Notes: generated by a model from the sequence alone, not told the origin. DNA of 64,000 nt from Acidimicrobiia bacterium (GCA_012960315.1 DUBN01000073.1:5174-69173); one strand, 5' to 3'; counted from the first letter of the stretch, positions 2,195 to 61,572 are shown. Program-made: numbers and translations.

Positions 2195-3706
2195 ATGACT
2201 CGACCCGACCGCAGACGGCGGGGACGCACAGCAGCAGAAACAAGGCGCGAAACGTCGCCGAACCCGGCCCCTCCAGGCCTCACAGGAGGCCGCTATCAGC
2301 CGCTTGCCATTCCACAAGTCAACGAAATAGTCGACGGAACGTACACCCTGTTGGAAACGGTGGGTGTGAGCGAAGCACCCGACTTTGTAATTGACCTCGT
2401 CGTCGAGGCTGGCGGACAGGTGGTCAACGGAAGGCTGCTGTACCCGCGCGAACTAGTCCAATCTTTGGTCGAGCAGGCGCCGTCAGGTTTCGTCCTTTGC
2501 GGTAGAGACAGCAAGTACGACTTAGATCTCTCCGCACACCGTGTCCACCTAGGAACTGGAGGCGCGGCACCGATGATTATCGACATCAACAACGGCCAGT
2601 ACCGCCCTTCCACCCTTCGAGATCTCTACGACGTAGCTCGGCTTGTTGAAGGTTTGCAACATATCCACTTTCTGAGCCGGCCTCTTGTCGCAGGAGACAT
2701 GCCCGATGAGGAAACACTTGACATAAACACTGCCTACGCATGCCTAGCCGCAACTAGGAAACATGTCGCCACTAGCGCCACGAACGGCGCGACAGCAGCA
2801 GAGGTCGCGGAACTGTGTTTCGAGATAGCGGGATCTCAAGAGTTGTTTATTCAACGTCCGTTTCTCTCATTTAACGTCAACCACGTCACGCCGCCCTTGC
2901 GGATGAGTGAACATGCAATGGAGGTGCTTCGCGTCGCAGCGCAACTCGGAATCCCCGCACATGCAAATGTGTTTGGCCAAGTCGGTGCTTCGTCTCCGGC
3001 TGGGCTTGGTGCTGCGATCAGCCAGGCCATGGCAGAAGCATTGGCGGGAATGGTCTTCAGCTGGCTTGTAAATCCTTCAGCCAAGGTAATTTGTGGACCT
3101 GAGCCAATGATCGTCGACTTACGTACCGGAGGTATGAGCGGCGGCGGGGGCGAACAAGCATTGGTGATGGCCGCTGCGACACAAGTTGCTCGATCACTGG
3201 GTCTGCCCAATCGGTCGATTGCTGGGGCCAGCGACGCTAAAACCTCCGATGTCCAAAGTGGAGCAGAAAAGGCTTTAACCGTAACATTGGCCGCTCAGGC
3301 GGGTAGCAATCTGGTCACACAAGCTTGCGGGATGCAGGCCGCACTTATGGCTGCCTCATTCGAAAGCTACGTTGTTGACAACGACATGCTCGGTTCCATC
3401 ATGAGCTCCTTGCGGCCGGTAGAGACTGAAGAAATCGATCCGGCAATGATTCACGAAGTAGTTGCGGGGGCCGGACATTTCTTAGGTGAATCCGACACAC
3501 TCAAGAGGATGACCACCGACTTCGTCTATCCGAGCGTGGCGGATCGAACAGACTTCAAGCTCTGGGAGCAAACCGGACGTCCCACGCAACTCGACACGGC
3601 TCGGAGCGAAGTGGAGCGGATTCTGAAGGAACACCCGGGTTGTTTCTTTGAAGACAGTCTTGACCAAAGAATTCGTTCGCGGTTCGACATCCGACTTAAC
3701 TGGTAA
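2195..3706 (+). CDS. Trimethylamine methyltransferase (MttB) superfamily protein, non-pyrrolysine type (quaternary-amine methyltransferase-like)
   Basis: ATG 2195 is preceded by GGGGGA (2184-2189). The product is 503 aa with an Arg-rich N terminus (RPDRRRRGRTAAETRRE). Length and sequence pattern match what I recall for non-Pyl MttB homologues. No in-frame TAG. Recognition is by recall, not by search. Confidence 0.72.
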   Translation: MTRPDRRRRGRTAAETRRETSPNPAPPGLTGGRYQPLAIPQVNEIVDGTYTLLETVGVSEAPDFVIDLVVEAGGQVVNGRLLYPRELVQSLVEQAPSGFVLCGRDSKYDLDLSAHRVHLGTGGAAPMIIDINNGQYRPSTLRDLYDVARLVEGLQHIHFLSRPLVAGDMPDEETLDINTAYACLAATRKHVATSATNGATAAEVAELCFEIAGSQELFIQRPFLSFNVNHVTPPLRMSEHAMEVLRVAAQLGIPAHANVFGQVGASSPAGLGAAISQAMAEALAGMVFSWLVNPSAKVICGPEPMIVDLRTGGMSGGGGEQALVMAAATQVARSLGLPNRSIAGASDAKTSDVQSGAEKALTVTLAAQAGSNLVTQACGMQAALMAASFESYVVDNDMLGSIMSSLRPVETEEIDPAMIHEVVAGAGHFLGESDTLKRMTTDFVYPSVADRTDFKLWEQTGRPTQLDTARSEVERILKEHPGCFFEDSLDQRIRSRFDIRLNW

Positions 3707-3727: not shown

Positions 3728-5773
3728 GTGGTGTTTCGACTAGGCGCTGCGTTACGTCGTCTTAGTTGGATGGTGTGGCCAGCAGCCTTGCTTGTCACTC
3801 AACAGCTGCTGTTCCCTGCCCCTGCAGGGTCGTTCGTCTCTGGGCTAGTACTCGGCAGTATCACCTCCCTAGTAGCAGTGGCTATGTACCTCGTCTACCG
3901 GGTAAACAACGTTCTGAATTTCGCGGCCGGGGAACTGGGACTGCTTCCTGCCGTTTTCGCGATGTTGTTGATATTGGAATCAGGTTGGAATTGGTACTTG
4001 TCTTTCTTTTTAGCTCTGCTGTGTGCGGCAGTCATTGGAGTGGCCACCGAGTTCCTTATCGTCAGGCGGTTCTTTCAATCACCGCGGCTTGTGTTGACGG
4101 TGGCCACTTTGGGAATTGGTGAACTATTAGCAGTGTTTGCGTTATATCTTCCTGCCTGGTGGGACAGTTATCTCCAATCGCAGCGCCTTCAAGCACCTTT
4201 CAGTTTTCGATTCGATATTGGGAGTCGGGTTTTCGATGCCGACCATTTACTTGCTCTTGTTCTTGGGCCTGCGGCGATGGTGGCTCTTGTGCTGGTGTTG
4301 CGATGGACGCGCATCGGGATTGCCATCAGGGCTTCGGCTGAGCTGCCAAGCAGGGCGGGTCTATTAGGTATTCCGGTGAAAGCCGTCAGCAGCATTGTGT
4401 GGGGGATAGCAGCGGTGTTTGCGTTTCTCGCTCTGTTCCTTCGATCAGGCGTTTATGGCTTACCGATAGGAGGATCACTTGGTTTGCTGCTCCTGTTGCG
4501 GGCGCTGGCAGCGCTCACTTTGGGACGACTGGATCACCTGCCGACCATTATTGGCGTGTCCTTTGCACTTGGTGTTCTGCAAGAAGGAATTGTCTGGAAT
4601 TCTCAAGCCAACGAAGCCGAAGCCAAAATGGCAGCATTAACTGGCTTGGCGATTGTCCTTGGATTGGTATTTCGCCGCAGTCGTGGATTCCGTTCTGCGC
4701 TCGATGTGACTAGCTGGCAGGCAGTTGGACATGCTCGACCTATCCCACGGGTGTTCCTTCAGATACCGGGCATTCAAGTCGCTCGTGGAGTGGTCTTTCT
4801 AGTCATCGTGATCTTCTTTGCCGGATTTCCGTATTGGGGTGTTTTCGATACCACGGTCGTGGTACGGATGGGATTGGTGCTTCTGTATGCGGTCATCATG
4901 CTTTCGTTAGGGGTGCTCACCGGGTGGTCGGGGCAATTATCTTTGGGTCAAATGGCTTTTGCGGCAGTTGGTGGCGCGACCGGTGCGTGGTTGACGCAAA
5001 AAGCTGGGGTTGGCTTTGTTGCGGCGACGGCATTGGCGGGGTGTCTGGGGGCATTGTTTTCTTTGGTCGTGGGAATTCCAGCGCTGCGAATGCGTGGCAC
5101 ATATTTGGCTGTCACCACCCTGGCCCTTGAACTCACCACGGTTCAGTATTTTTTGAACCCTCAGTTCTTTAGTTGGGTGCCGGTGGAACGGATTACCCGG
5201 CCGCCGTTGTTCGGCACAATCAACTGGGAGAGTTCCCAAGCAGCGTATTACGTGTGCCTTGTGACTCTAACGATCGCATGTGTAGCTGTCGCCGGACTAA
5301 AGAATGGGCGTATTGGGCGCGTCTTGGTCGCGTTAAGAGACAATGAAATTGCGGCTGAGGCATATGGGGCGCGAGCCTCACAACTAAAATTGGTGGCATT
5401 CGCAATTTCTGGTTTTCTTGCGGCCGTTGCTGGTTCGGTGATCGCCCACCACCAGCAAGCGTTCAATGTGACCCCAGCTGGATTCAGCATTGTGGTGTTT
5501 ATGGGGGCTGTCGTGGGTGGACTGGGGTCGATCAGCGGGGCAATTATCGGCTCCCTGTTCTGGAACGGGTCTTGGTATTGGCTTCAAGGGTCGTGGAGGT
5601 TGCTGGCAACTGGAACAGGTGTGCTTGTAGTGCTCCTCATTGCTCCAGCAGGCATAGTCGGGTTGTGGGCTGATTTGAGGAATCTTGCCTTAAGAAAGTT
5701 GGGTGCTCGTTTTGGACTTCAAGAAACGGATTCGGCTGAGGACTTGTTAGGAAACGAGGACTTGGAACGATGA
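3728..5773 (+). CDS. Fused LivH-like + LivM-like permease of a branched-chain-amino-acid-type (HAAT) ABC importer
   Basis: 681 aa, polytopic. The N half has the LivH pattern (YRVNNVLNFAAGELG). The C half has the LivM pattern (GWSGQLSLGQMAFAAVGGATGAWL). GGGAGGGGG lies just upstream of GTG 3728/3731. Stop TGA 5771-5773 overlaps the next start (ATGA). Confidence 0.85.
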   Translation: MVFRLGAALRRLSWMVWPAALLVTQQLLFPAPAGSFVSGLVLGSITSLVAVAMYLVYRVNNVLNFAAGELGLLPAVFAMLLILESGWNWYLSFFLALLCAAVIGVATEFLIVRRFFQSPRLVLTVATLGIGELLAVFALYLPAWWDSYLQSQRLQAPFSFRFDIGSRVFDADHLLALVLGPAAMVALVLVLRWTRIGIAIRASAELPSRAGLLGIPVKAVSSIVWGIAAVFAFLALFLRSGVYGLPIGGSLGLLLLLRALAALTLGRLDHLPTIIGVSFALGVLQEGIVWNSQANEAEAKMAALTGLAIVLGLVFRRSRGFRSALDVTSWQAVGHARPIPRVFLQIPGIQVARGVVFLVIVIFFAGFPYWGVFDTTVVVRMGLVLLYAVIMLSLGVLTGWSGQLSLGQMAFAAVGGATGAWLTQKAGVGFVAATALAGCLGALFSLVVGIPALRMRGTYLAVTTLALELTTVQYFLNPQFFSWVPVERITRPPLFGTINWESSQAAYYVCLVTLTIACVAVAGLKNGRIGRVLVALRDNEIAAEAYGARASQLKLVAFAISGFLAAVAGSVIAHHQQAFNVTPAGFSIVVFMGAVVGGLGSISGAIIGSLFWNGSWYWLQGSWRLLATGTGVLVVLLIAPAGIVGLWADLRNLALRKLGARFGLQETDSAEDLLGNEDLER

Positions 5774-8652
5774 AGGGCAAGCCGAGCATCATGCGAAGGA
5801 TCGCAGGGGAAGGGCCTATAGGCGCGCTCCTGATCATCTTCGGTCTTAATGCGGTAGATGAACTTGATCGGAGCGCCTTTGCGATCTTGGCGCCTGAAAT
5901 ACGGGACGAGTTTCAGTTGGGTTTCACTGGTCTACTCACTTTCATAGCTTTCGTCGTAGCGTTCTCTCTTTCGTTGCAGGTACCTATCGCTGCTTTGGCA
6001 GATCGGGCGCCCCGGGTGAGGTTGGCCTTAATCGGCGCAACTTTATGGGCTTGCTTTTCGTTTGGGACCGGTCTGGCGGCCGGCGTCATCACTCTCGCTG
6101 TCGCCCGGAGCGGATCCGCTATCGGCAAAGCCGTTAACGATCCGACACACAACTCGCTGATAGCGGACTGGTTCGCACCTAAGGATCGACCCCGGGCCTA
6201 CGCTTTTCATCGCGCAGCTAACGCTGTGGGAGCAACGCTGGGTCCGCTGCTAGCGGGCTTTACCGCGTACTACTGGGGGTGGCGTACACCTTTTTTGTTG
6301 TTTGCCGTCCCAACACTGCTTGTCGTGGTGATGGGGTTGAAGTTGCGAGAACCGGTCAGGGGTTCACATGAGCGACGTCTTGCAGGAGGTGACGCATTGG
6401 CAGTGGCGACGGAAGAAGCGCCACCGTCTATCTCTGAAGCATGGCGCATGTGTTGGAAAATTGAGTCTCTTCGCCGGATATTTGCCGCGACTCCTTTTTT
6501 GGCGGCCTCGCTGATTGGCTTTGGCACCTTGGCGGGACTGCTTTATGAGGAGGCATATGGGCTCGATGAACGCGCTCGCGGGATTGTCGCCGCGGCATCA
6601 GAACCTGGCCAGCTCATTGGTTTAATTATTGGTGCCCAGGTCGCGTCTCGAGTAGTTGAACGCGACCCCGGACGCATCTTGCGGTACTTAGCTGTTGTTT
6701 CCAGTGTCACCGCTGTCCTTTCGGGAATTTTCGCGGTGGTACCAAACCTGGGTGTTGCGATCGCTGCCAATGTACTCATAGCGCTATGTCTGGCCATCGT
6801 TGGACCCGGAATCATTGCTGCCCTGTCACTTGCAATTCCACCGCGAGCTCGATCTGTCGGATTCTCCATGGGATCGCTGTGGGTTCTTCCAGGCCTTCTC
6901 ATACTTCCTTTTATTGGATGGATCGCGGACAACTGGGGGATACGAGCAGGAATGGTGATGATGGTTCCTGTGTTTTTTATTGGAGGTCTTGTGATCGCAA
7001 GCGGCGCGAATGTCATCGGCCGCGACGTGGAGCAAGTACGAAAAACAGCTTTGGCAAGGTCTGAAGTTTTTCAAGAACGACGAAACGGCCGCGTCAAATT
7101 GCTGCTGTGTCAGGACCTCCAAGTTAGTTACGACGGAATTCAAGTTCTTCACGACGTGAACTTCGAAGTGGAGGAAGGTGAAATCGTTGCGCTCTTAGGA
7201 ACGAACGGATCAGGAAAGTCGACATTGCTCCGCGCTATTTCAGGCGTAGTGGCGGCGGATCATGGTGCGGTGATCTTTGATGGACGGGACACTACCTTCG
7301 CCCCACCTAACGAGATAGCGAGGCTTGGGATCATTCAAATGCCTGGAGACGCCGGGGTTTTTCCGAGCCTGACTGTCGCAGAAAATCTGGAAGCGGCTGG
7401 TTGGATACGCCGAGGAGATCAAGCTGACCTTCAATCGGACCAACAACAAATACTTCAAACCTTTCCTGAACTTCGCGATCGTAAAGAATCGGTGGCCGCA
7501 GACCTCTCCGGAGGACAGCAACAGATGCTCGCATTGAGTATGACGCTGCTCACCCGTCCCCGGCTTCTAATGATTGATGAGCTGTCTCTGGGGTTGGCAC
7601 CCGTGGTCGTGGAGCGGCTTCTTCGGATGGTTCGAGACATAGCCGCATCGGGGGTCAGCATTGTTCTAGTTGAACAATCCGCCAATCTTGCGTTGGACAT
7701 CGCGGACACGGCTTACTTTCTTGAACGGGGGAGGGTGCGCTTTCGCGGGCCTGCGGAAGAACTTCGGGAGCGGGCTGACCTGTTGCGCGCCGTGTTTCTC
7801 GCTGAGCCCTCTTCTTCGGCAACCAGGGTGAAGCCAGTAACGATAGATGATGAACAACCTCCGGTTCTAGAAGTTCGGTCGCTTACTCGTCACTTTGGAG
7901 GAATTCGGGCGGTCGACAACGTCTCCTTTAGAGTGCACTCAAACGAGGTGGTCGCGTTCATCGGACCTAACGGCGCAGGCAAAACAACCCTTTTCGACTT
8001 GATCGGAGGATCCACACCCATTGAGCGAGGCCAAGTTTTCTTGGTTGGACAGGACATCACCAGGCATGCTTCGAGCGGGCGGGCCCGCCATGGCTTGGGC
8101 AGAAGCTTTCAAAACGCGCGCCTGTTTCCGACACTGACGGTGAAGGAAACCCTCGCCGTGTCGCTAGAACGCTGGATTCGATGGGGTGATCCAGTGACTG
8201 CAGCGCTGCACCTGCCGATGGCTTATGACAGCGAGCAACGAATCGACCACCGAGTGGAGGAAGTGATAGCCCAATTTGGTCTCGATTCGTTTGCCCACAA
8301 GCTCGTCGCTGAACTGTCAACAGGAACTCGGAGGATCGTGGATCTTGCCTGTGTAGCGGCTCATCAACCCTCCGTTATCTTGTTGGACGAACCCTCAAGT
8401 GGAATAGCTCAAAGCGAAGTTGAAGCCTTGGGTGGAATTCTTCTCCAAATGAGGCAAGAACTGAATGCCGCGTTGATGGTCATCGAACATGATGTGACGC
8501 TCGTCGCCGAAATAGCGGACCGAGTAATTGCACTAGACGGGGGCAGCGTCATCGCCGAAGGAACCGCCCAACAGGTCTTCGACGATGATCAGGTCATCAC
8601 CGCCTATCTCGGCCATTCTGAGGCGGCGTTGAAGCGATCTGGTCGCAGCTAA
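5770..8652 (+). CDS. Triple fusion: N-terminal MFS-type membrane domain + LivF-like ABC ATPase + LivG-like ABC ATPase
   Basis: Single 960-codon ORF. Residues ~1-425 are MFS-like (IAALADRAPRVRLALIG loop, GATLGPLLAGF, WRTPFLLF). NBD1 (~nt 7090-7800) has GTNGSGKST, LSGGQQQMLAL and LLMIDELSLGLAP. NBD2 (~nt 7867-8620) has GPNGAGKTT, LSTGTRRIVDL, ILLDEPSSGIA and the terminal VITAYLG. Confidence 0.85.
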   Translation: MKGKPSIMRRIAGEGPIGALLIIFGLNAVDELDRSAFAILAPEIRDEFQLGFTGLLTFIAFVVAFSLSLQVPIAALADRAPRVRLALIGATLWACFSFGTGLAAGVITLAVARSGSAIGKAVNDPTHNSLIADWFAPKDRPRAYAFHRAANAVGATLGPLLAGFTAYYWGWRTPFLLFAVPTLLVVVMGLKLREPVRGSHERRLAGGDALAVATEEAPPSISEAWRMCWKIESLRRIFAATPFLAASLIGFGTLAGLLYEEAYGLDERARGIVAAASEPGQLIGLIIGAQVASRVVERDPGRILRYLAVVSSVTAVLSGIFAVVPNLGVAIAANVLIALCLAIVGPGIIAALSLAIPPRARSVGFSMGSLWVLPGLLILPFIGWIADNWGIRAGMVMMVPVFFIGGLVIASGANVIGRDVEQVRKTALARSEVFQERRNGRVKLLLCQDLQVSYDGIQVLHDVNFEVEEGEIVALLGTNGSGKSTLLRAISGVVAADHGAVIFDGRDTTFAPPNEIARLGIIQMPGDAGVFPSLTVAENLEAAGWIRRGDQADLQSDQQQILQTFPELRDRKESVAADLSGGQQQMLALSMTLLTRPRLLMIDELSLGLAPVVVERLLRMVRDIAASGVSIVLVEQSANLALDIADTAYFLERGRVRFRGPAEELRERADLLRAVFLAEPSSSATRVKPVTIDDEQPPVLEVRSLTRHFGGIRAVDNVSFRVHSNEVVAFIGPNGAGKTTLFDLIGGSTPIERGQVFLVGQDITRHASSGRARHGLGRSFQNARLFPTLTVKETLAVSLERWIRWGDPVTAALHLPMAYDSEQRIDHRVEEVIAQFGLDSFAHKLVAELSTGTRRIVDLACVAAHQPSVILLDEPSSGIAQSEVEALGGILLQMRQELNAALMVIEHDVTLVAEIADRVIALDGGSVIAEGTAQQVFDDDQVITAYLGHSEAALKRSGRS

Positions 8653-8677: not shown

Positions 8678-10513
8678 ATGGAACCAGCAGGACAAGGCGC
8701 TTCCCTTCGCAAATTTGGCCCGCTTGTCGCCCTTTCGGTAGCAGCAGTTGTCGTCGTGATCATCGTCGTCACCGGCAGCGACAACGATGACGTTCAACAA
8801 CCAATTACGCAGAAATCAACTTCCGCTCAAGTAGATGGCGGGGCTGAACCGGAGAGCGAGGCGCAGGAGAAGGCATCCGAGGACGGTAGCGAGCCAGAAT
8901 CTGAGGACGTGGCTCCAACGACTACTGCGCCAAGAGCCCTAGGCACAGACTGGGGTCCTGATACCGGTTTCAGACCCGGAGTTATGTTCTTGGATCGAGC
9001 GGAAGAGCTCGGCCTAGAAATTGAGTGGGGTGAGCGTTGTGACATTGACCGAGGAACCTTGGCCATTCCCAGCTTCTTCGCTGGTGCTTGCGCTGCACCA
9101 TACGAGGGATGGAACGGTGGGGAAACAGATCGAGGTGTAACTGAAGACAGCATCCGAATCGTTTGGTGGCTCGCTCAAGATGTAGACCCAGTCATGGCTT
9201 ACCTCACTTCAGCTATTTACAACGACGACACAACTGCCGATGACGAGCACACGATCCGTGGACTGCTTGAGTACTACGAGACCTACTACGAGACCTACGG
9301 GCGAAGCGTCGACCTCACGATAATGATTGGCTCGGGCAACATTCTGGATGCAGCGGCGGCACGGGCGGATGCCGTGAAGGTCGATGAAGAACTTGACCCT
9401 TTCATGGTGATTGGTGGCCCAACTCTCACGAACGCGTTTGCGGAAGAGCTACACGCCAGAGGAATACCTTGCATCTCTTGTGGCCCTGGACAGACACCCG
9501 AGTACTACCGCGAGCGACCAGGTATGGCCTACACCCTAGGGAAAGGGCCTCAACAGTTGAACATGCTGGTCGCCGAGTACATCGGAAAGCGCTTGGCAGG
9601 AGACCCTGCTATTCACGCTGGGGATGCTTCGATGCGTGCCCGGCAACGACAATTTGGTCGAATATGGAATCTCGCGAGTCGAGCGTCGGTTGACTCCAAT
9701 GCGCAGTTCGAAGAACTCCTAGCGGGATATGACGTAGAAGTAGTCGAATCGCAGTCCTACGTTCTTGACCCGGCCACCCTTCAAGAATCAGCCGGTACGA
9801 TTATCGCGAGAATGAAAGAAGCCGGCGTAACGTCGGTCATCTTTAACGGTGATCCGATTGCGCCTCGCGATTTCACCAACGAGGCTGCTGCGCAGGATTA
9901 TTGGCCAGAGTGGATTGTGACTGGATCGGTGCTGGTTGACACAACCGCATTCGCTCGGACATACCACCAGCAACAGTGGTCTCACGCATTCGGTATTTCG
10001 AACCTGAACGCTCGAGTCGACAGAAGTGTTGCCTCTTCACATTTCCTTTACGAATGGTTCCATGGTGAGCCTCCACGGGCGAACGACAACATCGGAATTA
10101 TTGATCCGGCGCCGGGTCTGTTCTACGCGGTTCTCCAAGCGGTCGGACCGGAACTAACGATTGAAGGCTTCAACGAAGCCGTGTTCTCCGCGGACCCTAC
10201 GAGAAGCGCGGTGACGGCTCCCAGCCTTTCTTACGGGGACAAAGATCGGTGGCCTGATTCACAGGAACCCGATTACCACGGTGTTGACGATATCGCCGAA
10301 ATTTGGTGGGATCCTACGGTGGAGGGACTTGACGAGATCGACCGCGATGGCCGAGGAATGTGGCAGTTCGTAAATGGGGGTCAAAGGTATCTCCTGGGTG
10401 AAATACCAGATGGTGCTCCTCAGGCGTTTGAACTCGAAGGCGCGGTTACTATCTACCTGTCTCCGCCGGCAACTGAGGCTTCGCCGAGTTATGAGCCGCT
10501 GTCGAGCCGCTAG
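8678..10513 (+). CDS. Membrane-anchored extracytoplasmic solute-binding protein (type I periplasmic-binding-fold-like), probable partner of the Liv-type transporter
   Basis: N-terminal hydrophobic anchor (FGPLVALSVAAVVVVIIVVTG, no lipobox Cys), then an acidic Glu/Ser linker. The remaining ~500 aa loosely resemble Leu/Ile/Val-binding-type proteins (RSVDLTIMIGSGN...DPFMVIGGPTLTNAFAEELHARGIPCIS). It sits directly after the permease and ATPase genes. Confidence 0.5.
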   Translation: MEPAGQGASLRKFGPLVALSVAAVVVVIIVVTGSDNDDVQQPITQKSTSAQVDGGAEPESEAQEKASEDGSEPESEDVAPTTTAPRALGTDWGPDTGFRPGVMFLDRAEELGLEIEWGERCDIDRGTLAIPSFFAGACAAPYEGWNGGETDRGVTEDSIRIVWWLAQDVDPVMAYLTSAIYNDDTTADDEHTIRGLLEYYETYYETYGRSVDLTIMIGSGNILDAAAARADAVKVDEELDPFMVIGGPTLTNAFAEELHARGIPCISCGPGQTPEYYRERPGMAYTLGKGPQQLNMLVAEYIGKRLAGDPAIHAGDASMRARQRQFGRIWNLASRASVDSNAQFEELLAGYDVEVVESQSYVLDPATLQESAGTIIARMKEAGVTSVIFNGDPIAPRDFTNEAAAQDYWPEWIVTGSVLVDTTAFARTYHQQQWSHAFGISNLNARVDRSVASSHFLYEWFHGEPPRANDNIGIIDPAPGLFYAVLQAVGPELTIEGFNEAVFSADPTRSAVTAPSLSYGDKDRWPDSQEPDYHGVDDIAEIWWDPTVEGLDEIDRDGRGMWQFVNGGQRYLLGEIPDGAPQAFELEGAVTIYLSPPATEASPSYEPLSSR

Positions 10514-10610: not shown

Positions 10611-11534
10611 GTGCAGAACACATCGCTTTCCCCACAGCGCCGTAGCTATCTGGATTCACTGGAATCAGAAGCTATTTACGTGTTCCGAGAAGTCGTTAGC
10701 CAATTTCGACGACCCGTCATGCTGTATTCGATTGGTAAAGACTCATCCGTGCTTTTGCATTTAGCGCGAAAAGCCTTCCACCCCGGTCCGGTCCCTTTCC
10801 CGCTACTGCATATCGACACGACTTGGAAGTTCAAAGAGATGATCGAATTTCGTGATCGAATCTGCGCCGAACTCGGTTTGGAATTACTGGTACACAGCAA
10901 TCCTGAAGGTTTAGCTGCTCAAATCAACCCGTTCGACCACGGATCCCAAACATATACCGACATCATGAAAACCGATGCTCTGAAACAGGCGTTGACTCAG
11001 GGAAACCACGACGCAGCCTTCGGTGGTGCGCGCCGAGACGAAGAACGTTCAAGGGCCAAGGAAAGAATCTTTAGCTTCCGAGACGCCAATCACCGCTGGG
11101 ACCCCAAGAGACAGAGACCCGAACTATGGAATCTGTATAACGGAAAGGTCTCAGATGGGGAAAGTATTCGTGTCTTTCCCATCAGCAATTGGACCGAACT
11201 CGACGTTTGGCACTACATCCATCTTGAAAAAATTGAGATAGTTCCGCTCTACCTCGCAGCGCCCCGGCCGATCGTGGAGCGCGATAAGAACTTAATCATG
11301 GTCGACGACGCTCGATTCCCGTTAACGCCAAGGGAGCAACCGCGCACGCGTTGGGTGCGTTTTCGAACCTTGGGCTGTTATCCGCTATCAGGAGCCATCG
11401 AATCCATGGCTTCCACCGTTCCAGAAGTTATTCAGGAAATGCTTTTGGATCGGCACTCCGAACGTCAAGGCAGAATTATCGATCATGACCAACTTGCGTC
11501 AATGGAAGAAAAGAAACGTGAAGGGTATTTTTGA
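10611..11534 (+). CDS. cysD: Sulfate adenylyltransferase subunit 2
   Basis: The N terminus [19 protein letters not shown]...[20 protein letters not shown]...[18 protein letters not shown] matches the PAPS-reductase-fold CysD pattern. Stop TGA 11532-11534 overlaps the next start (TGATG). Confidence 0.95.
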
Positions 11535-13450
11535 TGTTTGAGCGCGATCCGCTCATCGAATCTGACATCGCCGCGTATCTCGATCAGCGAATTCAAAAAG
11601 ATTTGGTGCGGTTTATTACCTGCGGAAGCGTTGATGATGGAAAGTCCACCCTCATTGGCCGTTTGCTACACGACTCACAACTCATCGCAGATGACCATCT
11701 CGAGACATTAAAAGCTGACTCTCAGCTCGGAGTGGGTAACGGCGACATCGATTTCTCTCTCGTCACTGACGGACTGAAAGCGGAAAGGGAGCAAGGAATC
11801 ACCATCGACGTCGCCTACCGGTATTTCGCGACGCGACACCGAAATTTCATCATCGCTGATACGCCGGGTCATGAGCAATACACCCGAAACATGGCGACTG
11901 GAGCATCGACGGCGGACCTGGCTGTGATTCTGGTAGACGCTCGAAAAGGAGTGGTACAACAGACGCGGCGACATTCCTATATTGCGGTGCTTTTGGGTGT
12001 GAAACATTTAGTCATCGCGGTGAACAAAATGGATCTTGTTGATTATTCCGAGGACCAGTTTTTGGAAATCATTGCCGATTACAACAAACACTCCGCAAAC
12101 CTCGGCATCGGATCGCTTGAGTACATTCCCATCTCGGCGTTGCACGGTGACAATGTTGTGGAAGCGAGTGCGGCAATGCCGTGGTTCTCTGGCCAGCCGC
12201 TGATCGATTATCTCAACGCAGTAAATGTCACTGAACCCGCTAAAGCTGTTGAGTTTCGCCTTCCCATTCAACTGGTTCTTCGTTCACACGCAGATTTCAG
12301 AGGATACGCGGGGAGTATCACCTCGGGACAGGTCCGTCCCGGCGATCGAGTCACTGCGCTCCCCTCTGGTATTTCATCCACCGTGGAACGCATAGTGACG
12401 TTTAACGGCGATCTCAAGGTGGCGTCGGCGGGTGATGCTGTCACTTTGACTCTTGGCGATGAAATTGACATGAGTCGCGGAGATCTCCTCGTCAAAGAGA
12501 ACGGGAAAGTCGAATTCGATGCCTCTGTTGAGGCCATGATCATTTGGATGGATGAGAAACCATTAGCTCTCGGGGAGCAGCTAATTCTGCAATCACATCA
12601 CGGCACCGCAAACGTGACGGTTGACGCGATTCGGTACCTATTGGACGTGAATACAGGAAAAGAAGCGAAAACAGCAGTGCTTCAACTTAATGACATCGCC
12701 CACTGTGCGATAAGTGCCGATCGCAAAATGCTTTTCGAGTCTTATGAGACTAACCGTGCTGGAGGTTCTTTTATCCTGATTGACCGGGTTCGTAACTCCA
12801 CCGTTGCTGCCGGGATGATTTCGGGTCCGGTATCTCCCTGGGATCAAACGCCCAAAGACTCGCTCGAAGTGCAGGCATCAACGATTGCGGCGGGAGAACG
12901 GCAGATTCGCTATCGACAACATCCTTGCACCATCTTATTAACCGGACTCACCGGAGCTGGAAAAAGCACGCTTGCTACCGCTCTCGAGCGCTGTTTGTTC
13001 GACCGCGGAAACTCAATCGTGCGGTTGGATGGCGAAAACGTGCGCCTTGGAATTAGCAAGGATCTCGGCTTTACAGCTGTGGATCGTTCCGAAAATCTTC
13101 GCCGTGTCGCAGAAATCGCGCACCTAATGAACAGTCAAGGACTGATCGCAATAGCAGCTTTAGTCGCGCCGCAGGCCAACGCACGCGCACGGGCTCAACA
13201 GTTAGTCGGAGCTGACCAATGGATTGAAGTGTTTCTCGACACGCCACTGGCAGTTTGCCGAGATCGGGACACAACTGGCCTGTATGAAGCGGCTGAACGT
13301 GGTGACATCGAAGAATTTCCGGGAGTTTCAGCTGCCTACGAGGCACCGGAAGATGCTGATTTGCGTTTAGATACTGCTGGCATGACAGTGGACCAGTGCG
13401 TGAACGCCATTGTCGAACTTCTGATTGAGAAGGGCTTTGTTGATGGTTGA
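11534..13450 (+). CDS. cysNC: Sulfate adenylyltransferase subunit 1 (GTPase) fused to an APS-kinase-like C-terminal domain
   Basis: GTPase motifs GSVDDGKST, DTPGHEQY and NKMD, then an EF-Tu-like beta-barrel region, then a P-loop kinase-like domain (LTGLTGAGKST...LDGENVRLGISKDLGFT...RSENLRRVAEIA). ATG 11534 (TTG 11531 is also possible). Confidence 0.93.
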   Translation: MFERDPLIESDIAAYLDQRIQKDLVRFITCGSVDDGKSTLIGRLLHDSQLIADDHLETLKADSQLGVGNGDIDFSLVTDGLKAEREQGITIDVAYRYFATRHRNFIIADTPGHEQYTRNMATGASTADLAVILVDARKGVVQQTRRHSYIAVLLGVKHLVIAVNKMDLVDYSEDQFLEIIADYNKHSANLGIGSLEYIPISALHGDNVVEASAAMPWFSGQPLIDYLNAVNVTEPAKAVEFRLPIQLVLRSHADFRGYAGSITSGQVRPGDRVTALPSGISSTVERIVTFNGDLKVASAGDAVTLTLGDEIDMSRGDLLVKENGKVEFDASVEAMIIWMDEKPLALGEQLILQSHHGTANVTVDAIRYLLDVNTGKEAKTAVLQLNDIAHCAISADRKMLFESYETNRAGGSFILIDRVRNSTVAAGMISGPVSPWDQTPKDSLEVQASTIAAGERQIRYRQHPCTILLTGLTGAGKSTLATALERCLFDRGNSIVRLDGENVRLGISKDLGFTAVDRSENLRRVAEIAHLMNSQGLIAIAALVAPQANARARAQQLVGADQWIEVFLDTPLAVCRDRDTTGLYEAAERGDIEEFPGVSAAYEAPEDADLRLDTAGMTVDQCVNAIVELLIEKGFVDG

Positions 13451-14048
13451 GGACCCGAAATCGAGCAATATCACTCGATCAGAGGGGTTGATCGATGCGG
13501 AAGCCAGGAACCTCCGATCGGGACATGGATCTTGCACCGTTTGGTTTACCGGCCTTTCGGGATCAGGAAAATCTACGCTCGCTCTTGCTTTAGAGGCAGA
13601 ACTTCATTCTCGTAAGGTGGGGAGTTACGTCTTAGACGGTGACAATATCCGGTTTGGCCTCAACCGTGATTTGGGCTTTACGGCTGCGGATAGAACTGAG
13701 AACATTCGCAGAGTTGGAGAAGTAGCACGGCTCTTCTGCGACTCGGGATTAATTGTTCTTACTGCCTTCATATCTCCATACCTTCGTGACCGAGAGCTGG
13801 TTCGGAGTCTGCACACACCTTCGACGTTCATGGAGGTGTACCTAAACACCCCGCTTGAAGAATGTGAGCGGCGCGACGAAAAAGGTTTGTACCGCAAGGC
13901 CCGCAACGGAGAAATCGAAGAATTCACCGGGATTTCCGCCCCTTATGAGCCACCGGTAGACCCTGAACTAGTTGTCGATACGCGACGACCGCTGAAAGAA
14001 TGCGTGAACGACGTATTGGCGATGTTGTCAAGTCGCCGCACTATTTGA
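13443..14048 (+). CDS. cysC: Adenylylsulfate (APS) kinase, canonical stand-alone copy
   Basis: Motifs FTGLSGSGKST, LDGDNIRFGLNRDLGFTAADRTENIRRVGEVARLF, LTAFISPYLRDR and KGLYRKARNGEI. ATG 13443 overlaps the cysNC stop (ATGGTTGA); the longest ORF starts at 13425. Confidence 0.93.
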   Translation: MVEDPKSSNITRSEGLIDAEARNLRSGHGSCTVWFTGLSGSGKSTLALALEAELHSRKVGSYVLDGDNIRFGLNRDLGFTAADRTENIRRVGEVARLFCDSGLIVLTAFISPYLRDRELVRSLHTPSTFMEVYLNTPLEECERRDEKGLYRKARNGEIEEFTGISAPYEPPVDPELVVDTRRPLKECVNDVLAMLSSRRTI

Positions 14049-27445: not shown

Positions 27446-28201
27446 ATGGAAACCGATCTTGTTGAGACCGACACAAAGGGCCACATAACGATCATTACGC
27501 TGCATCGTCGTGAGAAACGAAACGCGTTTGACCCAAACCTGACGGCTGCTCTCAATCAGGCACTGGATTCATTTGAAGACGATCCCGACCAGTGGGTGGC
27601 GGTTTTGACGGGTGGGATCGACATGTTTTCCGCCGGAAGTGACCTCAAAGAGGGAAGCGGTAAGTCGGATCGTGGCGGCGAGTACGGCATAATTCGCCGG
27701 CGTCGCGTCAAGCCACTCGTAGCGGCGGCGGAAGGCTTGGCTCTTGGCGGAGGAATGGAAATATTGTTTTGCTGTGACCTCATTGTCGCTTCAACCGATC
27801 TTCGCTTGGGGCTGCCTGAAGTTAAGCGCGGTGTGTTACCCACCAGTGGCGGGCTTTTCAGGGCCCTTCGGTCACTTCCGTTGCATGTGGCGAAAGAGGT
27901 TGTGCTAACGGGTGAAGAGCTATCAGCGGAGCGGGCGTTGCAGTATGGCCTAATCAACAGGCTCGTCGAGCCGGGACATGCGTTAGAAGTTGCTGTCGCA
28001 TTAGCCGAAGAGATCGCGTCGAATTCTCCCACCTCCACGCGTCACTCTGTGCAGGCAATGGAACGAATCCTTGCAAGCGGAGACGAACTTGGCTGGTCTG
28101 TCACTGACTACGCTCGATCTGAAGTTTTCGCGAGCGAAGATCGCAAAGAGGGGATCAAAGCGTTTTTTGAACGCCGCGAACCAGAATGGAAGGGTCGCTA
28201 A
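27446..28201 (+). CDS. Enoyl-CoA hydratase/isomerase (crotonase) family
   Basis: ITIITLHRREKRNAF, VAVLTGG...FSAGSDLKE and AAAEGLALGGGMEILFCCDLIVAS. ATG 27446 lies 5 nt after GTGGGA. Stop TAA 28199-28201 overlaps the next ATG. Confidence 0.9.
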   Translation: METDLVETDTKGHITIITLHRREKRNAFDPNLTAALNQALDSFEDDPDQWVAVLTGGIDMFSAGSDLKEGSGKSDRGGEYGIIRRRRVKPLVAAAEGLALGGGMEILFCCDLIVASTDLRLGLPEVKRGVLPTSGGLFRALRSLPLHVAKEVVLTGEELSAERALQYGLINRLVEPGHALEVAVALAEEIASNSPTSTRHSVQAMERILASGDELGWSVTDYARSEVFASEDRKEGIKAFFERREPEWKGR

Positions 28202-28767
28202 TGCGGTTGTCGATTCCTAACGAGGATGAACTTTCTGAATCGCAGGTCAAGCTTCGCGATGCGGTTGTAGGCAGTAGGAAAGGCCTGGGTTCCGAAATTT
28301 GGGGACGCGGCCCGTTTGGAGTGTGGCAGAACGCTCCCAATGTGGGCCATCCTGCATTGGACTTAGGTGGTGCTGTTCGGTTCAGCACCGAGATCCCCGC
28401 CGATGTCCGGGAAGTGGCCATCTGTACGGTTGGGGTTCATTATCGAGCAAAGTTTGAATTCGCCGCGCACAAAGCAATCGGTATCAAAGCTGGCCTTGAA
28501 GCGGATGCGCTCGACCGTCTCGCTCGAGGGGAAAGTCCGGGATGGACCGGGGCTTTAGAGGTGACGCATCGATACACGAAAACTCTTCTGGAGGAACACC
28601 GAGTGACTCAAGGGTTACACGACGAGCTCGCGGCAGCGTTTGGTGAACAAGGTGTTGTGGAAATTGTTACAACCATCGGCTATTACTCCTTGATTTCTCT
28701 AACGCTCAACGCCTTCGAGGTCCCGCTGTCCACTCAAATGGACGATCCGTGGCCGGAAGAAGGTTGA
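28201..28767 (+). CDS. Carboxymuconolactone decarboxylase (AhpD-like/CMD) family protein
   Basis: TAATG coupling at 28199-28203. Pattern LSESQVKLRDAVV...REVAICTVGVHYRAKFEFAAHKAIG, typical of CMD family members that lack a CxxC motif. Confidence 0.75.
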   Translation: MRLSIPNEDELSESQVKLRDAVVGSRKGLGSEIWGRGPFGVWQNAPNVGHPALDLGGAVRFSTEIPADVREVAICTVGVHYRAKFEFAAHKAIGIKAGLEADALDRLARGESPGWTGALEVTHRYTKTLLEEHRVTQGLHDELAAAFGEQGVVEIVTTIGYYSLISLTLNAFEVPLSTQMDDPWPEEG

Positions 28768-28908: not shown

Positions 28909-29244
28909 CTATTTGATGAACAGCACTTGACCGATCGACCCACTGACGTTTTCTGCAGGCGCATCGGGCCCGAGTGCATCGCTGCCAAATAGTTCTTCAA
29001 ACTCAGGATCAGCAAAGAAGGCGTCGGTTGCTGCGCCGTATTCGGCGAAGGAGGGGTAACCGAACGTGTGATGGAAAGTCAAAAACCCGCCGCTAGGCCC
29101 GCCGAGTTGTTGAACCAGAGTGTGATACGACGGCCTGATATCTAGTCGCGTCAAAATTTCGTCAAATCTTTCCATTACCCCCACGAAGTCTTCAGCTCGA
29201 CCCGGCTTCACTTTCCAAGTATCGGTCCATACGTGTGCTGGCAT
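28909..29244 (-). CDS. Hypothetical small protein (possibly ferredoxin-like alpha+beta fold)
   Basis: The ORF is open from TTG 29277. ATG 29244 has AAGG about 9 nt upstream. I recognised no family; the amino-acid composition looks protein-like. Confidence 0.4.
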   Translation of the reverse strand: MPAHVWTDTWKVKPGRAEDFVGVMERFDEILTRLDIRPSYHTLVQQLGGPSGGFLTFHHTFGYPSFAEYGAATDAFFADPEFEELFGSDALGPDAPAENVSGSIGQVLFIK

Positions 29245-29398
29245 AATCGCCGCCTTTGTTTCTGGTTTAGTTGTCAAACCATGTCACAGCGCCCCTGTCG
29301 ATGACAAAGCGGAGTGGCAACGGACCGTCCTATGGGATGCTCTGCCACGGGCCGGGTCGTAAACATGAGAAGTTTCGCCGTGATCTACGCTGTGGGCC

Positions 29399-30043
29399 AT
29401 GTCTTCCGAAGCCGTGCAGATAACCGTTTGGTCCGATTACCTCTGACCTTGGTGTTGGGTTGGGGCCGTGCGTCTCGACGAATTAGCTGAACAAGAAGGG
29501 GACGGTATTGCTATCGAATGGAAATCGTTCTTGTTGCGGCCTGAACCTGAGGAGAGGACCCTCGCAGAATTTACTGAATATACGAAAAGTTGGGAGCGTC
29601 CAGCTGGCCTTGAGCCTCTCGCTGGTTTCAACACCCCGTGGTCTGGTGCCAGCCCACCGCCCTCACACTCTTTGCCAGCAGCCATCGCTGGCAAAACCGC
29701 TGCCACGTTCGGCCAAGCGACCTGGCGGCGCTATCACCAAAGGCTGTTGCGTGCCTATTTCATCGAGAACCGCGATATTTCGAATTCCGATGTTCTCTTA
29801 GAAGTAGCTGGCGAAGCAGACATCGATACGAATGTTTTCGAAGAGACTCGGATAGCTAATGGGAAAGACTTTGAGAGTCAGGTGTTCGCTGAGTACAACG
29901 AAGCGCTAAGCAGCGGCGTGAATGGTGTGCCCGCTGTAGTGATTGATCACAGGTATCTAGTGTCTGGTGCAGTCGAAGTAGAGCATTACCAAAAAGCTCT
30001 TGCGCACTACCGAGAAATTCGAGACGATGAAAATAGTGGCTAG
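29399..30043 (+). CDS. DsbA/FrnE-like thiol:disulfide oxidoreductase with in-frame TGA (29444-29446) at the first Cys position of CPWC: candidate selenoprotein (alternatively a nonsense pseudogene)
   Basis: The same frame as track ORF 29468..30043, extended upstream, reads MSSEAVQITVWSDYL[TGA]PWCWVGAVRLDELAEQEG.... The downstream part has DsbA-family blocks (IEWKSFLLRPEPE, NGVPAVVIDHRYLVSGAVEVEHY). I saw no other lesion. Confidence 0.65.
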
Positions 30044-32531: not shown

Positions 32532-32820
32532 GTAGCGAACAACCTAGCCAACTACAAGTAGGGCGCTGTGCACCAGCAAAGATAACTCCGAAGCGCAGCC
32601 GGTCCTTGGCTCTGGTGAGTGGCGGATTGGGTTGACTTAGCCTTGGTGGACGTCGGAGTCGGTGTTCGCGTTGATGAAGGCCGGATCTGAGAAAGGCTTC
32701 GTGTATGTGGCTTCCCACAGTGCTCGTCCTCACGCATCTGGCTGTCGCGAGCGACTCGGTCCGCGATGGCCCTAACGAGCGCTAGTTTCTTTGCCGGTCG
32801 GACATAAGGGGGAATTGCGC

Positions 32821-35241
32821 GTGCTGTCGCCGTATCGAGTACTTGATCTCACTGATGAACGAGGCCAACTGGCGGGTGCCACTCTGGCAGACCTTGGGGC
32901 AGAGGTCATTTTGGTGGAGCCTCCGGACGGTTCACGTTCGCGCCGACTACCGCCGTTTGTTGCGGGACGAGAGGGTGACCCTGAAGCATCTCTGTGGTTT
33001 TGGTCATACAACCGCGGGAAGCGAAGTATCTCCATGGATCTTGACGATCCGGCCGATCGCGGACGTTTTCTCGAGTTGGTCGCCGGTGCAGACATTGTCC
33101 TTGAGTCGGATCGGCCAGGAGCTATGGCTGAGCGTGGACTTGGCTACGACGAGCTCGCGGCGGTGAATCCTGAAATCGTGGTGACATCCATTTCTCCGTT
33201 TGGTCAGAGCGGACCCAAAGCCGACTGGGCCGCGACAGATCTGACTGTGGCTGCAGCAGCGATGGTGCCAAAGATGACCGGCGACGAAGACCGCGCACCT
33301 TTACGTGTGCCTTTAGCGCAGTCATTTCTGCACGCTTCAGCCGAGGCTGCAGGAGCGACCCTCATCGCTCTACATGAACGTAACCGTTCCGGTAAGGGGC
33401 AACACGTTGACGTCAGTGCCCAGCAATCTTTTATGCAAGCCACTCAGTCGATGGTTCTGTGTCACTTATACAACTCACCTGAGACGACTCGGATGAGTGG
33501 TGGAGCGGCAGTGGGCCCATTTCGAATTCGCCTCCGCTCTCCGGCTGCCGACGGATTCGTCTCCATCACAATCCTTTTTGGCGAAGCGATTGCCCCGTTC
33601 AGCTCCCGACTTTTCGAATGGATCCATGAGGAGGGCATGTGTGAAGGTAGCGATCTCGAGATTGACTGGGTCAACTTCGTTGAAGGGGTGACAAACGGTC
33701 GTATCGGGCTGGGAGAATACGACCGCATCCAAGAAGTCGCTGCCCAATTCTCAGCGACAAAGAGTAAAGCCGAGTTGCTATCGGCAGCCCGTGAGAAGCG
33801 TCTGCTGATCGTGCCGATTTGCAACGTCCAGGAAGTTGCAGAGCTTGGCCAGTTCGAGGAGCGGGGCTTTTGGCGTGAAATCGAATGCCTTGATCTCGGG
33901 CCAGTTCGATTTCCGGGCCCGATGGCCAAATTTTCTGCTACGCCGCTCGATGTATCGCTGCCCCCACCTGCCATCGGTCAGGACAACGGTGAGATCAAAA
34001 CCCGGGTTGCCGAACCCACCACGGTCGTTGAAGCGATGCCAGTAGCGCCGCTTTCTGATGTCAAGATCCTGGACCTGATGTGGGTGATGGCCGGCCCAGC
34101 CGCAACTCGAGTGTTCGCTGACTGGGGGGCGACCGTGGTGCGCGTTGAGTCCTCACACAAAATTGAGGGAGCGCGTACATTTCAGCCGTTGCTCAACAAT
34201 GAAGGAGGTTCGGAAAACAGCGGACTGTTCCAGAACCTCAACGCTGGCAAACTCGGCCTTACCGTCGCGATGGACAACCCTGAAGCGAGGGAACTTATCC
34301 TCGACCTTGTGCGTTGGGCCGACGTGGTGTGTGAGTCGTTCTCACCAAAAGCCATGGCCGGATGGAACCTGACTTACGAGGATTTGAAGGAGGTGAATCC
34401 TGACGTCATCATGACAAGTAGTTGCTTGTTCGGACAAGACGGCCCGATGTCGCATCTAGCGGGTTTTGGAACCATGGGGGCCTCAATGTCGGGTTTCTAT
34501 GAAATGACTGGTTGGCCTGACCGTGACCCCGCAGGAGTCGCTGGGGCTTATACCGACTACGTCTCTCCCCGCTATCTGGAGATTGCAATCCTTGCTGCCC
34601 TTGACCATCGGCGTCGAACTGGCGAGGGCCAGTACATTGATCTCTCCCAAGCTGAGTCATCGATGAACTTTCTAACCCCGCATCTACTTGGCTGGACAGT
34701 TAACGGGCAGCTAGCCCCGAAGATCGGGAACGCCGACCCGTTGATGTTGCCCCACGGTATCCACCCCTGTTCGGGAGACGACGAGTGGGTTGCTGTCTCG
34801 TGTGAAAACGATGAACAGTGGCGCAGCCTGTGTGACCTCTTGGGTTTTCCCGCCGAGTGGAGCGAAGCCGACATCGCAGCCCGGCGGATCCTTGGACCGG
34901 AGATCGAATCCGCGATCGAAGCGTGGACATCGGTTCGACGGGGAGCCGAGGCGCACTCAAGTCTGCAGGCCATCGGAGTACCCGCCCATGTAGTGCAGGA
35001 CTCGATCGTGGTGGCTAGTGACCCACAACTGGAACACCGCAACCACTTCCGGCAAGCGCCCCATGACGAACATGGGTCGATGTGGATAGAAGGAACCAGG
35101 TTCTCGATGTCTCGCAGCACCGATGCGATCAGCGGCGCGGCACCGACTCTTGGCCAGCACACCTTTGATGTGCTCGAGGGGATACTCGGCTACGACGCCG
35201 ACCACATCGCGGAACTGGCGGTGGCCGGAGTCCTTGAGTGA
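32821..35241 (+). CDS. Tandem fusion of two family III CoA-transferase (CaiB/BaiF) domains
   Basis: GTG 32821 follows AAGGGGGA (32806-32813); the longest ORF starts at TTG 32791. Domain 1 begins YRVLDLTDERGQLAGATLADLGAEVILVEPP. Domain 2 begins VKILDLMWVMAGPAATRVFADWGATVVRVES. Each is followed by the ...G-x-G-Q-x-[VI]-D block. Confidence 0.9.
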   Translation: MLSPYRVLDLTDERGQLAGATLADLGAEVILVEPPDGSRSRRLPPFVAGREGDPEASLWFWSYNRGKRSISMDLDDPADRGRFLELVAGADIVLESDRPGAMAERGLGYDELAAVNPEIVVTSISPFGQSGPKADWAATDLTVAAAAMVPKMTGDEDRAPLRVPLAQSFLHASAEAAGATLIALHERNRSGKGQHVDVSAQQSFMQATQSMVLCHLYNSPETTRMSGGAAVGPFRIRLRSPAADGFVSITILFGEAIAPFSSRLFEWIHEEGMCEGSDLEIDWVNFVEGVTNGRIGLGEYDRIQEVAAQFSATKSKAELLSAAREKRLLIVPICNVQEVAELGQFEERGFWREIECLDLGPVRFPGPMAKFSATPLDVSLPPPAIGQDNGEIKTRVAEPTTVVEAMPVAPLSDVKILDLMWVMAGPAATRVFADWGATVVRVESSHKIEGARTFQPLLNNEGGSENSGLFQNLNAGKLGLTVAMDNPEARELILDLVRWADVVCESFSPKAMAGWNLTYEDLKEVNPDVIMTSSCLFGQDGPMSHLAGFGTMGASMSGFYEMTGWPDRDPAGVAGAYTDYVSPRYLEIAILAALDHRRRTGEGQYIDLSQAESSMNFLTPHLLGWTVNGQLAPKIGNADPLMLPHGIHPCSGDDEWVAVSCENDEQWRSLCDLLGFPAEWSEADIAARRILGPEIESAIEAWTSVRRGAEAHSSLQAIGVPAHVVQDSIVVASDPQLEHRNHFRQAPHDEHGSMWIEGTRFSMSRSTDAISGAAPTLGQHTFDVLEGILGYDADHIAELAVAGVLE

Positions 35242-61219: not shown

Positions 61220-61515
61220 AAGGTGTTTTGGTTCGGCTTGTTCGGTGATGTACGCAGCAGCAAACGGGTACTGGGGGACAATCAAACTTGCGGTCGCTTC
61301 GATTTGGCGAGGAGACCGGCCATTAGTTGGTCGGCCAAACCTTCCCCTCAGCGTTGTGGATCAGTTTCGACGTGAGGCACTATCACAGTATTTCCGTGCC
61401 GCTCGTAGCTTGCGAAACTGATGATGTTTTCATGATTCGCACCTTTCTTGCGGAGCTCAAATCGGCCGTCAGTTATGTTGTCATGGACGAAAAAACTCGA
61501 CGCGTTTTCGGTCAT
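61199..61515 (-). pseudogene. Decayed YjdJ-type small GNAT acetyltransferase gene (one in-frame TGA + one frameshift)
   Basis: The minus strand from ATG 61515 reads MTENASSFFVHDNITDGRFELRKKGANHENIISFASYERHGNTVIVPHVETDPQR[TGA 61348-61350]GEGLADQLMAGLLAKSK. After a 1-nt frame change near 61295, it continues ATASLIVPQYPFAAAYITEQAEPKHLLACDKK, with stop at 61199-61201. This is colinear and equal in spacing with E. coli YjdJ (...[41 protein letters not shown]...). Confidence 0.6.
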
Positions 61516-61572
61516 GCTTCTAGCCTTATGGGACCCGCTGGGTAAGGCAAACTGGAACCGTGAGGTAACTCA

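Follow-up and report, generated by a model that had tools for sequence, protein, structure and literature searches.

A conserved in-frame UGA codon and a downstream hairpin mark a very probable FrnE/DsbA-like selenoprotein of Acidimicrobiia and Rubrobacteraceae

What is the meaning of a TGA codon that interrupts an otherwise open gene exactly at the position of a catalytic cysteine? The question is posed by a gene on the plus strand, at 29399-30043, of a 64,000-nucleotide stretch of Acidimicrobiia bacterium DNA (GCA_012960315.1, DUBN01000073.1:5174-69173), the whole of which is hereafter called the window. The frame that opens with ATG (29399-29401) and closes with TAG (30041-30043) comprises 214 codons plus the stop and has a single interruption, TGA at 29444-29446; translation from 29399 gives MSSEAVQITVWSDYL, the TGA, and PWCWVGAVRLD.... 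The mechanical list of open reading frames (ORFs) starts this gene at GTG 29468, with a product of 191 aa. An earlier interpretation made from the sequence alone (the sequence-only reading) had placed the TGA at the first Cys of the C-P-W-C motif in a DsbA/FrnE-like gene and proposed that it is read as selenocysteine (Sec); the ATG, the TGA, the GTG, and the translation that it quoted all match the sequence. The comparative analysis described here supports the proposal, on the strength of a TGA conserved among relatives, a covarying stem-loop at the canonical distance from it, and Cys-type relatives that lack the stem-loop. The gene very probably encodes a 214-residue cytoplasmic thiol-disulfide oxidoreductase of the FrnE type (DsbA fold), in which the attacking residue is Sec, within the motif U16-P-W-C19.

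The DNA of relatives was collected using tblastn, with one genome per species, and the codon at the first-Cys position was read directly. Eighty related loci were fetched, one of which (L044) lacks the N-terminus and stands outside the codon count, such that 79 loci were scored; in many genomes, the matches extend to query residue 1. Of these 79 loci, 75 have TGA at this position and the other four (L041, L043, L055, and L063) have TGC or TGT; TAA and TAG never occur there. With the window included, TGA is present in 76 of the 80 sequences, that is, in all 76 that have no Cys codon at this site, and the terminal stops of the same genes comprise all three kinds (TAG 37, TGA 29, and TAA 13). Among orthologs, the conserved internal stop is always UGA, as expected of a selenoprotein gene. 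Protein identity among the loci ranges from 97% to 44%, and the allele of the window is by no means unique, which bears out the earlier view that a random nonsense mutation at precisely this codon is unlikely. Six NCBI assemblies (GCA_029935915.1 to GCA_029936035.1) contain an identical 645-nt gene, including the TGA; because they are 99.87-99.95% identical to the window over ~20 kb, they are independent of its sequence, and the A at 29446, which had been singled out for verification, is the same in all six. The exact 191-aa product is found on at least 23 contigs.

The carriers of the gene include marine Acidimicrobiales metagenome-assembled genomes (MAGs; MedAcidi-G3, MED-G01, UBA2110, and others), sponge-associated Poriferisodalaceae, soil Acidimicrobiia, and Rubrobacteraceae, and the UGA form is present in the closed Rubrobacteraceae chromosomes OZ243918.1 and OZ243953.1. 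The Sec form is therefore near fixation in the Acidimicrobiia and Rubrobacteraceae, at 75 of 79 loci. A Sec-type gene with the same hairpin and 50% identity was also detected in a MAG labeled Gammaproteobacteria (L079, CAXMSE010000035.1); either this contig is mis-binned or the gene was horizontally transferred.

The codons that surround the TGA carry the signature of purifying selection on the protein. Upstream, Ser at position -4 is invariant and is encoded by six codons, including AGC and AGT, Asp at -3 is invariant, and Leu at -1 is invariant with five codons. In the segment that separates the TGA from the GTG, the residues of the redox motif U-P-W-C (TGA CCT TGG TGT, 29444-29455) are likewise invariant in the 75 Sec-type sequences, with Pro at +1 encoded by four codons, followed by Trp and then by Cys at +3, encoded by TGC or TGT. 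Because these invariant residues use several synonymous codons, the segments on both sides of the TGA must be translated in-frame, which effectively excludes a dead gene as well as initiation at the annotated GTG. The position of the true start emerges from the same comparison: conservation of the peptide across the loci begins at the Met (MSSEAVQ, MMSSETVQ, MPSDTVQ, and similar), whereas the residue preceding it is freely variable. Downstream of the TGA, the remaining ~198 codons are intact in all TGA-bearing sequences, in agreement with the ~200 intact codons noted previously.

Reading of the TGA as Cys yields a match to the Pfam DSBA domain (PF01323) that spans residues 7-202 and covers the complete profile (1-191 of 191; E = 6.7e-25), with a score of 88.4 bits, far above the cutoff of 25.6. 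Since the full profile covers residues 7-202, the 23 residues lost with the GTG start are an integral part of the domain, and the suggestion that this start deletes the active site holds: as judged from the sequence, strand beta-1, the beginning of helix alpha-1, and the entire redox center would be missing from the GTG-start product. The nearest solved proteins by sequence are FrnE of Deinococcus radiodurans (PDB 5cnw and 5cp1) and SCO1869 of Streptomyces (3gl5). FrnE (DR_0659), which belongs to the DsbA family (cd03024) and acts in the cytoplasm as a disulfide reductase/isomerase, is the closest of these (E = 1.3e-14), albeit with low sequence identity and in two separate aligned stretches. 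The FrnE segment IWSDIACPWCYIG (5cnw) aligns with VWSDYL[TGA]PWCWVG, which puts the TGA on Cys22 of FrnE. The in-frame UGA thus faces Cys in the full-length relatives and in FrnE, with homology on both sides, and it lies within the span of the DSBA profile.

The two proteins share an N-terminal beta-strand followed by the redox motif, C-P-W-C in FrnE and U-P-W-C here, a DsbA-type helical insertion, and a V-P loop, and both lack a signal peptide. In the case of the protein analyzed here, beta-1 begins near residue 6, as judged by inspection of the sequence, and leaves no room for such a peptide. Members of the FrnE subfamily (cd03024) have no export signal and carry a CP(W/F)C active site close to the N-terminal end of a DsbA-like thioredoxin domain, and the present protein conforms to this pattern, with U-P-W-C at residues 16-19. 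The V-P dipeptide, Val177-Pro178 (29927-29932), is invariant at both positions in a 30-sequence alignment; we take it to be the cis-proline loop that faces the active site, as in thioredoxin folds in general. The differences from FrnE are twofold: Sec replaces Cys22, and the C-terminal tail of FrnE, 239-CxxxxC-244, which regenerates its active site, is absent. No CxxxxC motif was found anywhere in the protein, which ends in ...YREIRDDENSG and has C19 as its only Cys. This motif is common but not obligatory in the subfamily, given that the FrnE proteins of S. roseofulvus and D. maricopensis also lack it (PMC8945050).

If the UGA is decoded as Sec, a bacterial Sec insertion sequence (bSECIS) should be found close downstream. 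When the sequences are stacked, a hairpin that begins 12 nt after the UGA becomes apparent, with the consensus GUY-GGG-RC [CGUGC] GY-CUC-GAC. In the window, this hairpin occupies 29459-29479 and reads GUUGGGGC[CGUGC]GUCUCGAC, with the 5' arm at 29459-29466, the apical loop C-G-U-G-C at 29467-29471, and the 3' arm at 29472-29479; its free energy is -7.9 kcal/mol. The sequence-only reading missed this element and considered that no convincing SECIS was present; the two pairings that it listed instead (29447-29452 with 29460-29465 and 29471-29476 with 29499-29504) are not conserved. The hairpin conforms to all the published bSECIS criteria, as quoted in PMC13188914: the apical loop is 5 nt long (3-9 nt in the model), the upper stem has 6-8 bp (4-16 bp), the distance from the UGA to the loop is 20 nt (16-37 nt), the free energy is below the -7.5 kcal/mol limit, and the G-U at loop positions 2-3 corresponds to the G that is required in the first two loop positions and is followed by G or U. 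This G-U is the putative SelB contact. As in the E. coli fdhF-type hairpin that binds SelB, the element lies within the coding region just 3' of the UGA and combines a small G-U-containing apical loop with an upper stem, spacing, and energy of the expected magnitude. The difference is that the element is short, that is, only the upper stem-loop is conserved, with no extended lower helix reaching back to the UGA. At gathering thresholds, no Rfam family matches the hairpin or any other part of the window.

The hairpin covaries in a gap-free alignment of 76 UGA-type sequences. In the 8-bp helix, 89.7% of the cells are paired, compared to 35-45% after a shift of the 3' partners by 1-3 columns, and double-sided changes occur in 28 cells, against 5.0 +/- 5.7 in shuffled alignments; none of 500 shuffles attains the observed number of double-sided changes, the pairing percentage, or the covariation score. 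RNAalifold independently recovers the core (pairs 18-34, 19-33, 21-31, 22-30, and 23-29). Pair 22:30 is G-C in 33 sequences, A-U in 25, and G-U in 16, and is never broken. Its 5' base is position 1 of an Ala/Thr codon and its 3' base is position 3 of an Arg codon (CGU/CGC), so that an A/G change at column 22, which exchanges Thr and Ala, is compensated by a synonymous change in the Arg codon. Pair 21:31 is G-C in 70 sequences and is flipped to C-G in three. Synonymous choice within the hairpin is restricted as well, with only GGG or GGC used for Gly, only CGU or CGC for Arg, and only CUC or CUU for Leu.

The hairpin is, on the evidence of these alignments, specific to the UGA-bearing genes. 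Among the 76 Sec forms, 439 of the 456 core pairs (96%) are formed, the loop G-U is present in 75, and the mean energy of the hairpin fold is -8.7 kcal/mol, whereas among 11 Cys forms (the four genome loci and seven further homologs that were fetched), these values drop to 31 of 66 core pairs (47%) and one loop G-U, and the energies are mostly positive. The closest Cys-type relative, with 49% identity and TGC at the site (L087:301-933; ENA ERZ27256841, k141_4213634; protein P0029), is the only Cys form that retains most of the hairpin, GUGGGGAC[CGUGC]GCCUCGAC, with G-G and A-C mismatches that are never present in the Sec forms. Judging from its sequence, it looks like a SECIS that is decaying after a recent switch from Sec to Cys.

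The location of the hairpin also accounts for the way the gene is annotated. The GTG at 29468-29470, which encodes Val24, is the G-U-G of the conserved apical loop, and the start is miscalled systematically for that reason. Public gene calls start at this GTG or further downstream and yield products of 158-192 aa, such that the copies examined in NCBI, JGI/IMG, and Tara Oceans are N-truncated proteins without the active site, denoted "DsbA family protein" or "hypothetical protein". A protein search produced ~120 homologs among the matches listed; of these, nearly all with identities down to ~50% are called at 158-203 aa, with 74-91% query coverage, and the full-length forms (205-220 aa) cluster at ~45% identity. 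In the alignment, the short forms all begin at the same (M/V)RL, directly after the motif. In some assemblies, a 41-aa filler ORF in another frame was called over the true N-terminus and the Sec codon (L082-L085, at 9898-10023, or 8318-8443 in L085, corresponding approximately to 29365-29490 of the window); this ORF is a side effect of the miscalled start. Functional and structural inferences drawn from the truncated records would be wrong.

How strongly, then, do these observations weigh against a broken, a shorter, or a differently decoded gene? The sequence-only reading named the possibility that a mutation or a sequencing mistake has altered a TGC or TGT codon, so that the gene is dead or misread. 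Either codon is a single-base change away from TGA, and TGA is, as had been pointed out, the commonest ordinary stop in the window, where it terminates 22 of the 43 ORFs of at least 200 aa; the lack of sel genes within the window agrees with this possibility as well. Nevertheless, the same TGA recurs in the six assemblies and in 75 of 79 species, at a divergence (44-97% identity) that excludes chimeras of one sequence, the codons flanking it are under purifying selection and those that follow remain intact, and a covarying hairpin is kept only in the TGA forms, all of which makes a pseudogene or a base-call error vanishingly improbable. The public annotation could, alternatively, be correct, with the GTG as the start of a 191-aa DsbA-fold protein without a CxxC motif and the upstream 23 codons representing an untranslated leader or a separate 15-aa peptide. 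This is the product given by all gene callers and databases, and DsbA-fold proteins without redox cysteines do exist. However, the truncated protein would be deprived of beta-1 and the start of alpha-1, given that the Pfam profile begins at residue 7; the P-W-C-W/Y-V-G-A/T codons between the TGA and the GTG are invariant or conservatively substituted with several synonymous codons and, hence, translated; the upstream W-S-D-Y-L in the same frame is equally constrained; and the conservation of the GTG itself is that of the SECIS loop to which it belongs, with CTG usually found in its place in the Cys-type relatives. We consider this annotation extremely unlikely to be right.

Another possibility is that read-through of the UGA takes a route other than the canonical delivery of Sec by SelB, for example insertion of Cys by a tRNA(Cys) that resembles tRNA-Sec and has a UCA anticodon, or hairpin-aided near-cognate insertion of Trp or Cys. 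Indeed, the comparative evidence speaks to translation of the codon and to selection on the hairpin and would not by itself reveal the inserted residue or the factor that delivers it; furthermore, no Sec machinery was observed in the window and flanks, and SelB has been described as divergent in the related Actinomarinales. Genome-wide reassignment of UGA (genetic codes 4 or 25) was rejected given that TGA ends 22 of the 43 long ORFs. Against the more local variants, both the loop sequence and the spacing of the hairpin agree with the SelB-type bSECIS consensus, the site is a classic one for Cys/Sec exchange in a family already classed as selenoproteins, and insertion of Cys is achievable with TGC or TGT and no hairpin, as in the four Cys-type species of the 79 and the seven further homologs. 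Read-through of this kind accordingly appears highly improbable. A broader notion of non-canonical decoding, which encompasses a SelB system that has diverged and uses a minimal SECIS class of its own as well as insertion of Cys or another residue via a tRNA-Sec-like tRNA, is also very unlikely; if true, it would mean that abundant aerobic Actinomycetota of the sea and of soil (Acidimicrobiia and Rubrobacteria), an entire clade, keep UGA recoding mainly for one FrnE-like enzyme.

Several observations count against the Sec interpretation and temper the confidence that we place in it. Genes for SelA, SelB, and SelD and tRNA-Sec were not found in the 64-kb window or in ~1.2 Mb of sequence flanking the 80 loci, and the window shows no other selenoprotein gene. 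The single-sequence fold of 29444-29520 is unremarkable (z = -0.11), with a minimum-energy structure that does not contain the conserved hairpin, and the hairpin of the window itself includes three G-U pairs. The bSECIS criteria are permissive: among 165 in-frame TGA junctions in the window, 32 have a nearby Cys and seven pass, and the six other than the one discussed here were rejected because they lie inside or antisense to other genes. Finally, the sequences are phylogenetically related, so that the counts of species and of compensatory cells are higher than the number of independent events. The weight of the argument falls on the comparative evidence.

The absence of sel genes from the window had been noted in the sequence-only reading and was confirmed with Rfam, ARAGORN, and tblastn. 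ARAGORN detected no tRNA in the window and, across the 80 loci together with the window, ten ordinary tRNAs and no tRNA-Sec. A tblastn search of the window and the flanks with E. coli SelA, SelB, and SelD as queries produced a single match, to a GTPase domain at 11768-12619. The corresponding 639-aa ORF (11531-13450) was considered as a SelB candidate and rejected, being a CysN-CysC fusion. It belongs to a sulfate-activation cluster at 10611-14048 that consists of cysD, the cysN-cysC fusion, and a second, stand-alone adenosine 5'-phosphosulfate kinase gene (cysC) overlapping the end of the fusion. The lack of sel genes in these neighborhoods is what would be expected of random neighborhoods. 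Published work lends indirect support: according to a 2026 preprint, each of the 84 complete genomes of Actinomarinales, a sister order within the same class, has selC, selA, and selD together with a divergent selB, and five selenoproteins are listed for Rubrobacter xylanophilus. For the Acidimicrobiales proper, a search of publications on the Sec trait yielded only the Actinomarina preprint and a paper on sponge MAGs. A UGA fixed at one codon in 75 species, with a SECIS attached, is, we infer, hard to explain without Sec decoding in these lineages.

If the canonical bacterial system operates here, SelB would bind the mRNA hairpin at 29459-29479 via the apical-loop G-U and bring Sec-tRNA(Sec) to the ribosome, so that the UGA at 29444 would be decoded as U16 in the course of translation. 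The U16/C19 pair would then alternate between the selenol/thiol and selenenylsulfide (Se-S) states, with the selenolate expected to serve as the better nucleophile. By analogy with FrnE, which employs a Cys-Cys pair (PMC8945050), the enzyme may reduce or isomerize disulfides of cytoplasmic substrates. Because C19 is the sole Cys and the FrnE-type CxxxxC tail is absent, its recycling would have to use another reductant.

The window is syntenic with the UBA2110 locus (L001), where neighboring proteins are 97-99% identical, but synteny is confined to near relatives (L001, L002, and L020) and there is no operon; a scan for promoters and terminators around the gene returned no sites. Of the two ORFs immediately upstream, neither of which has a Pfam match, the one at 28909-29277 on the minus strand (122 aa) is conserved in L001 only and the one at 28186-28767 on the plus strand (193 aa) in L001, L002, and L020. 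A loose association was noticed with genes of CoA-transferase family III, which adjoin the DsbA-like gene or lie close to it in many loci that otherwise share no synteny (at 32791-35241 in the window, ~0.55-0.67 kb upstream in L004-L012, at +0.8 kb in L002, and at 1-246 of L087). Farther away in the window, an uninterrupted ORF for an MttB-family methyltransferase (2195-3706; Pfam MTTB, 1-487 of 500) has no in-frame TAG and is, for this reason, of the non-pyrrolysine type. A 960-aa ORF at 5770-8652, an unusual fusion of an N-terminal MFS_1 domain with two ABC_tran ATPase domains, adjoins a fused branched-chain amino-acid permease (3728-5773). The "GNAT remnant" at 61199-61575 contains several stops of different kinds in frame 1 of the plus strand.

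The likely identity of the protein can be traced through two decades of selenoproteome surveys. As stated in the sequence-only reading, DsbA-like selenoproteins were predicted in marine metagenomes: the 2005 Sargasso Sea selenoproteome includes a "DsbA-like protein" (COG2761, UXXC) with nine sequences and predicted SECIS elements (PMC1088965), and the 2008 Global Ocean Sampling selenoproteome includes "DsbA 1" (pfam01323, UxxC) with 63 sequences, more common in marine samples (PMC2398784). In 2016, a survey that covered more than 5,200 sequenced organisms counted 45 genes for a DsbA-like selenoprotein in 41 organisms, and a 2026 review refers to "DsbA-like protein form 1" (PMC13188914). The gene analyzed here resembles this family in the PF01323 domain, the UxxC motif with Sec at the first Cys (U-P-W-C), the downstream stem-loop, whose small apical loop contains a G, the marine enrichment, and the widespread Cys homologs. 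We see no difference in kind, the placement being based on these shared features; the gene may also be an ortholog of the published representatives AACY01178397 and NIP15863.1. A cluster look-up of the NCBI-sourced homologs did not find NIP15863.1 and returned MBM46903.1, MCH1615600.1, MCP3937079.1, and others. None of the three family accounts (PMC1088965, PMC2398784, and PMC13188914) names the Acidimicrobiia or the Rubrobacteraceae as carriers. In all likelihood, then, 29399-30043 is a genuine but unannotated selenoprotein gene of a family known from ocean metagenomes since 2005, and its mechanism would not be new.

What the locus adds is a taxonomic home, in the marine and soil Acidimicrobiia and in the Rubrobacteraceae, for a marine DsbA-like selenoprotein that is long known but has remained taxonomically vague. 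The near-fixation of the Sec form would imply that these aerobic lineages maintain Sec decoding, adding to the recent evidence of selenium use in abundant marine Actinomycetota. In addition, the family offers a comparatively validated 21-nt bacterial SECIS, complete with a compensated amino-acid change and, in a Cys revertant, a copy that seems to be decaying; this example could be useful for training programs that predict selenoproteins.

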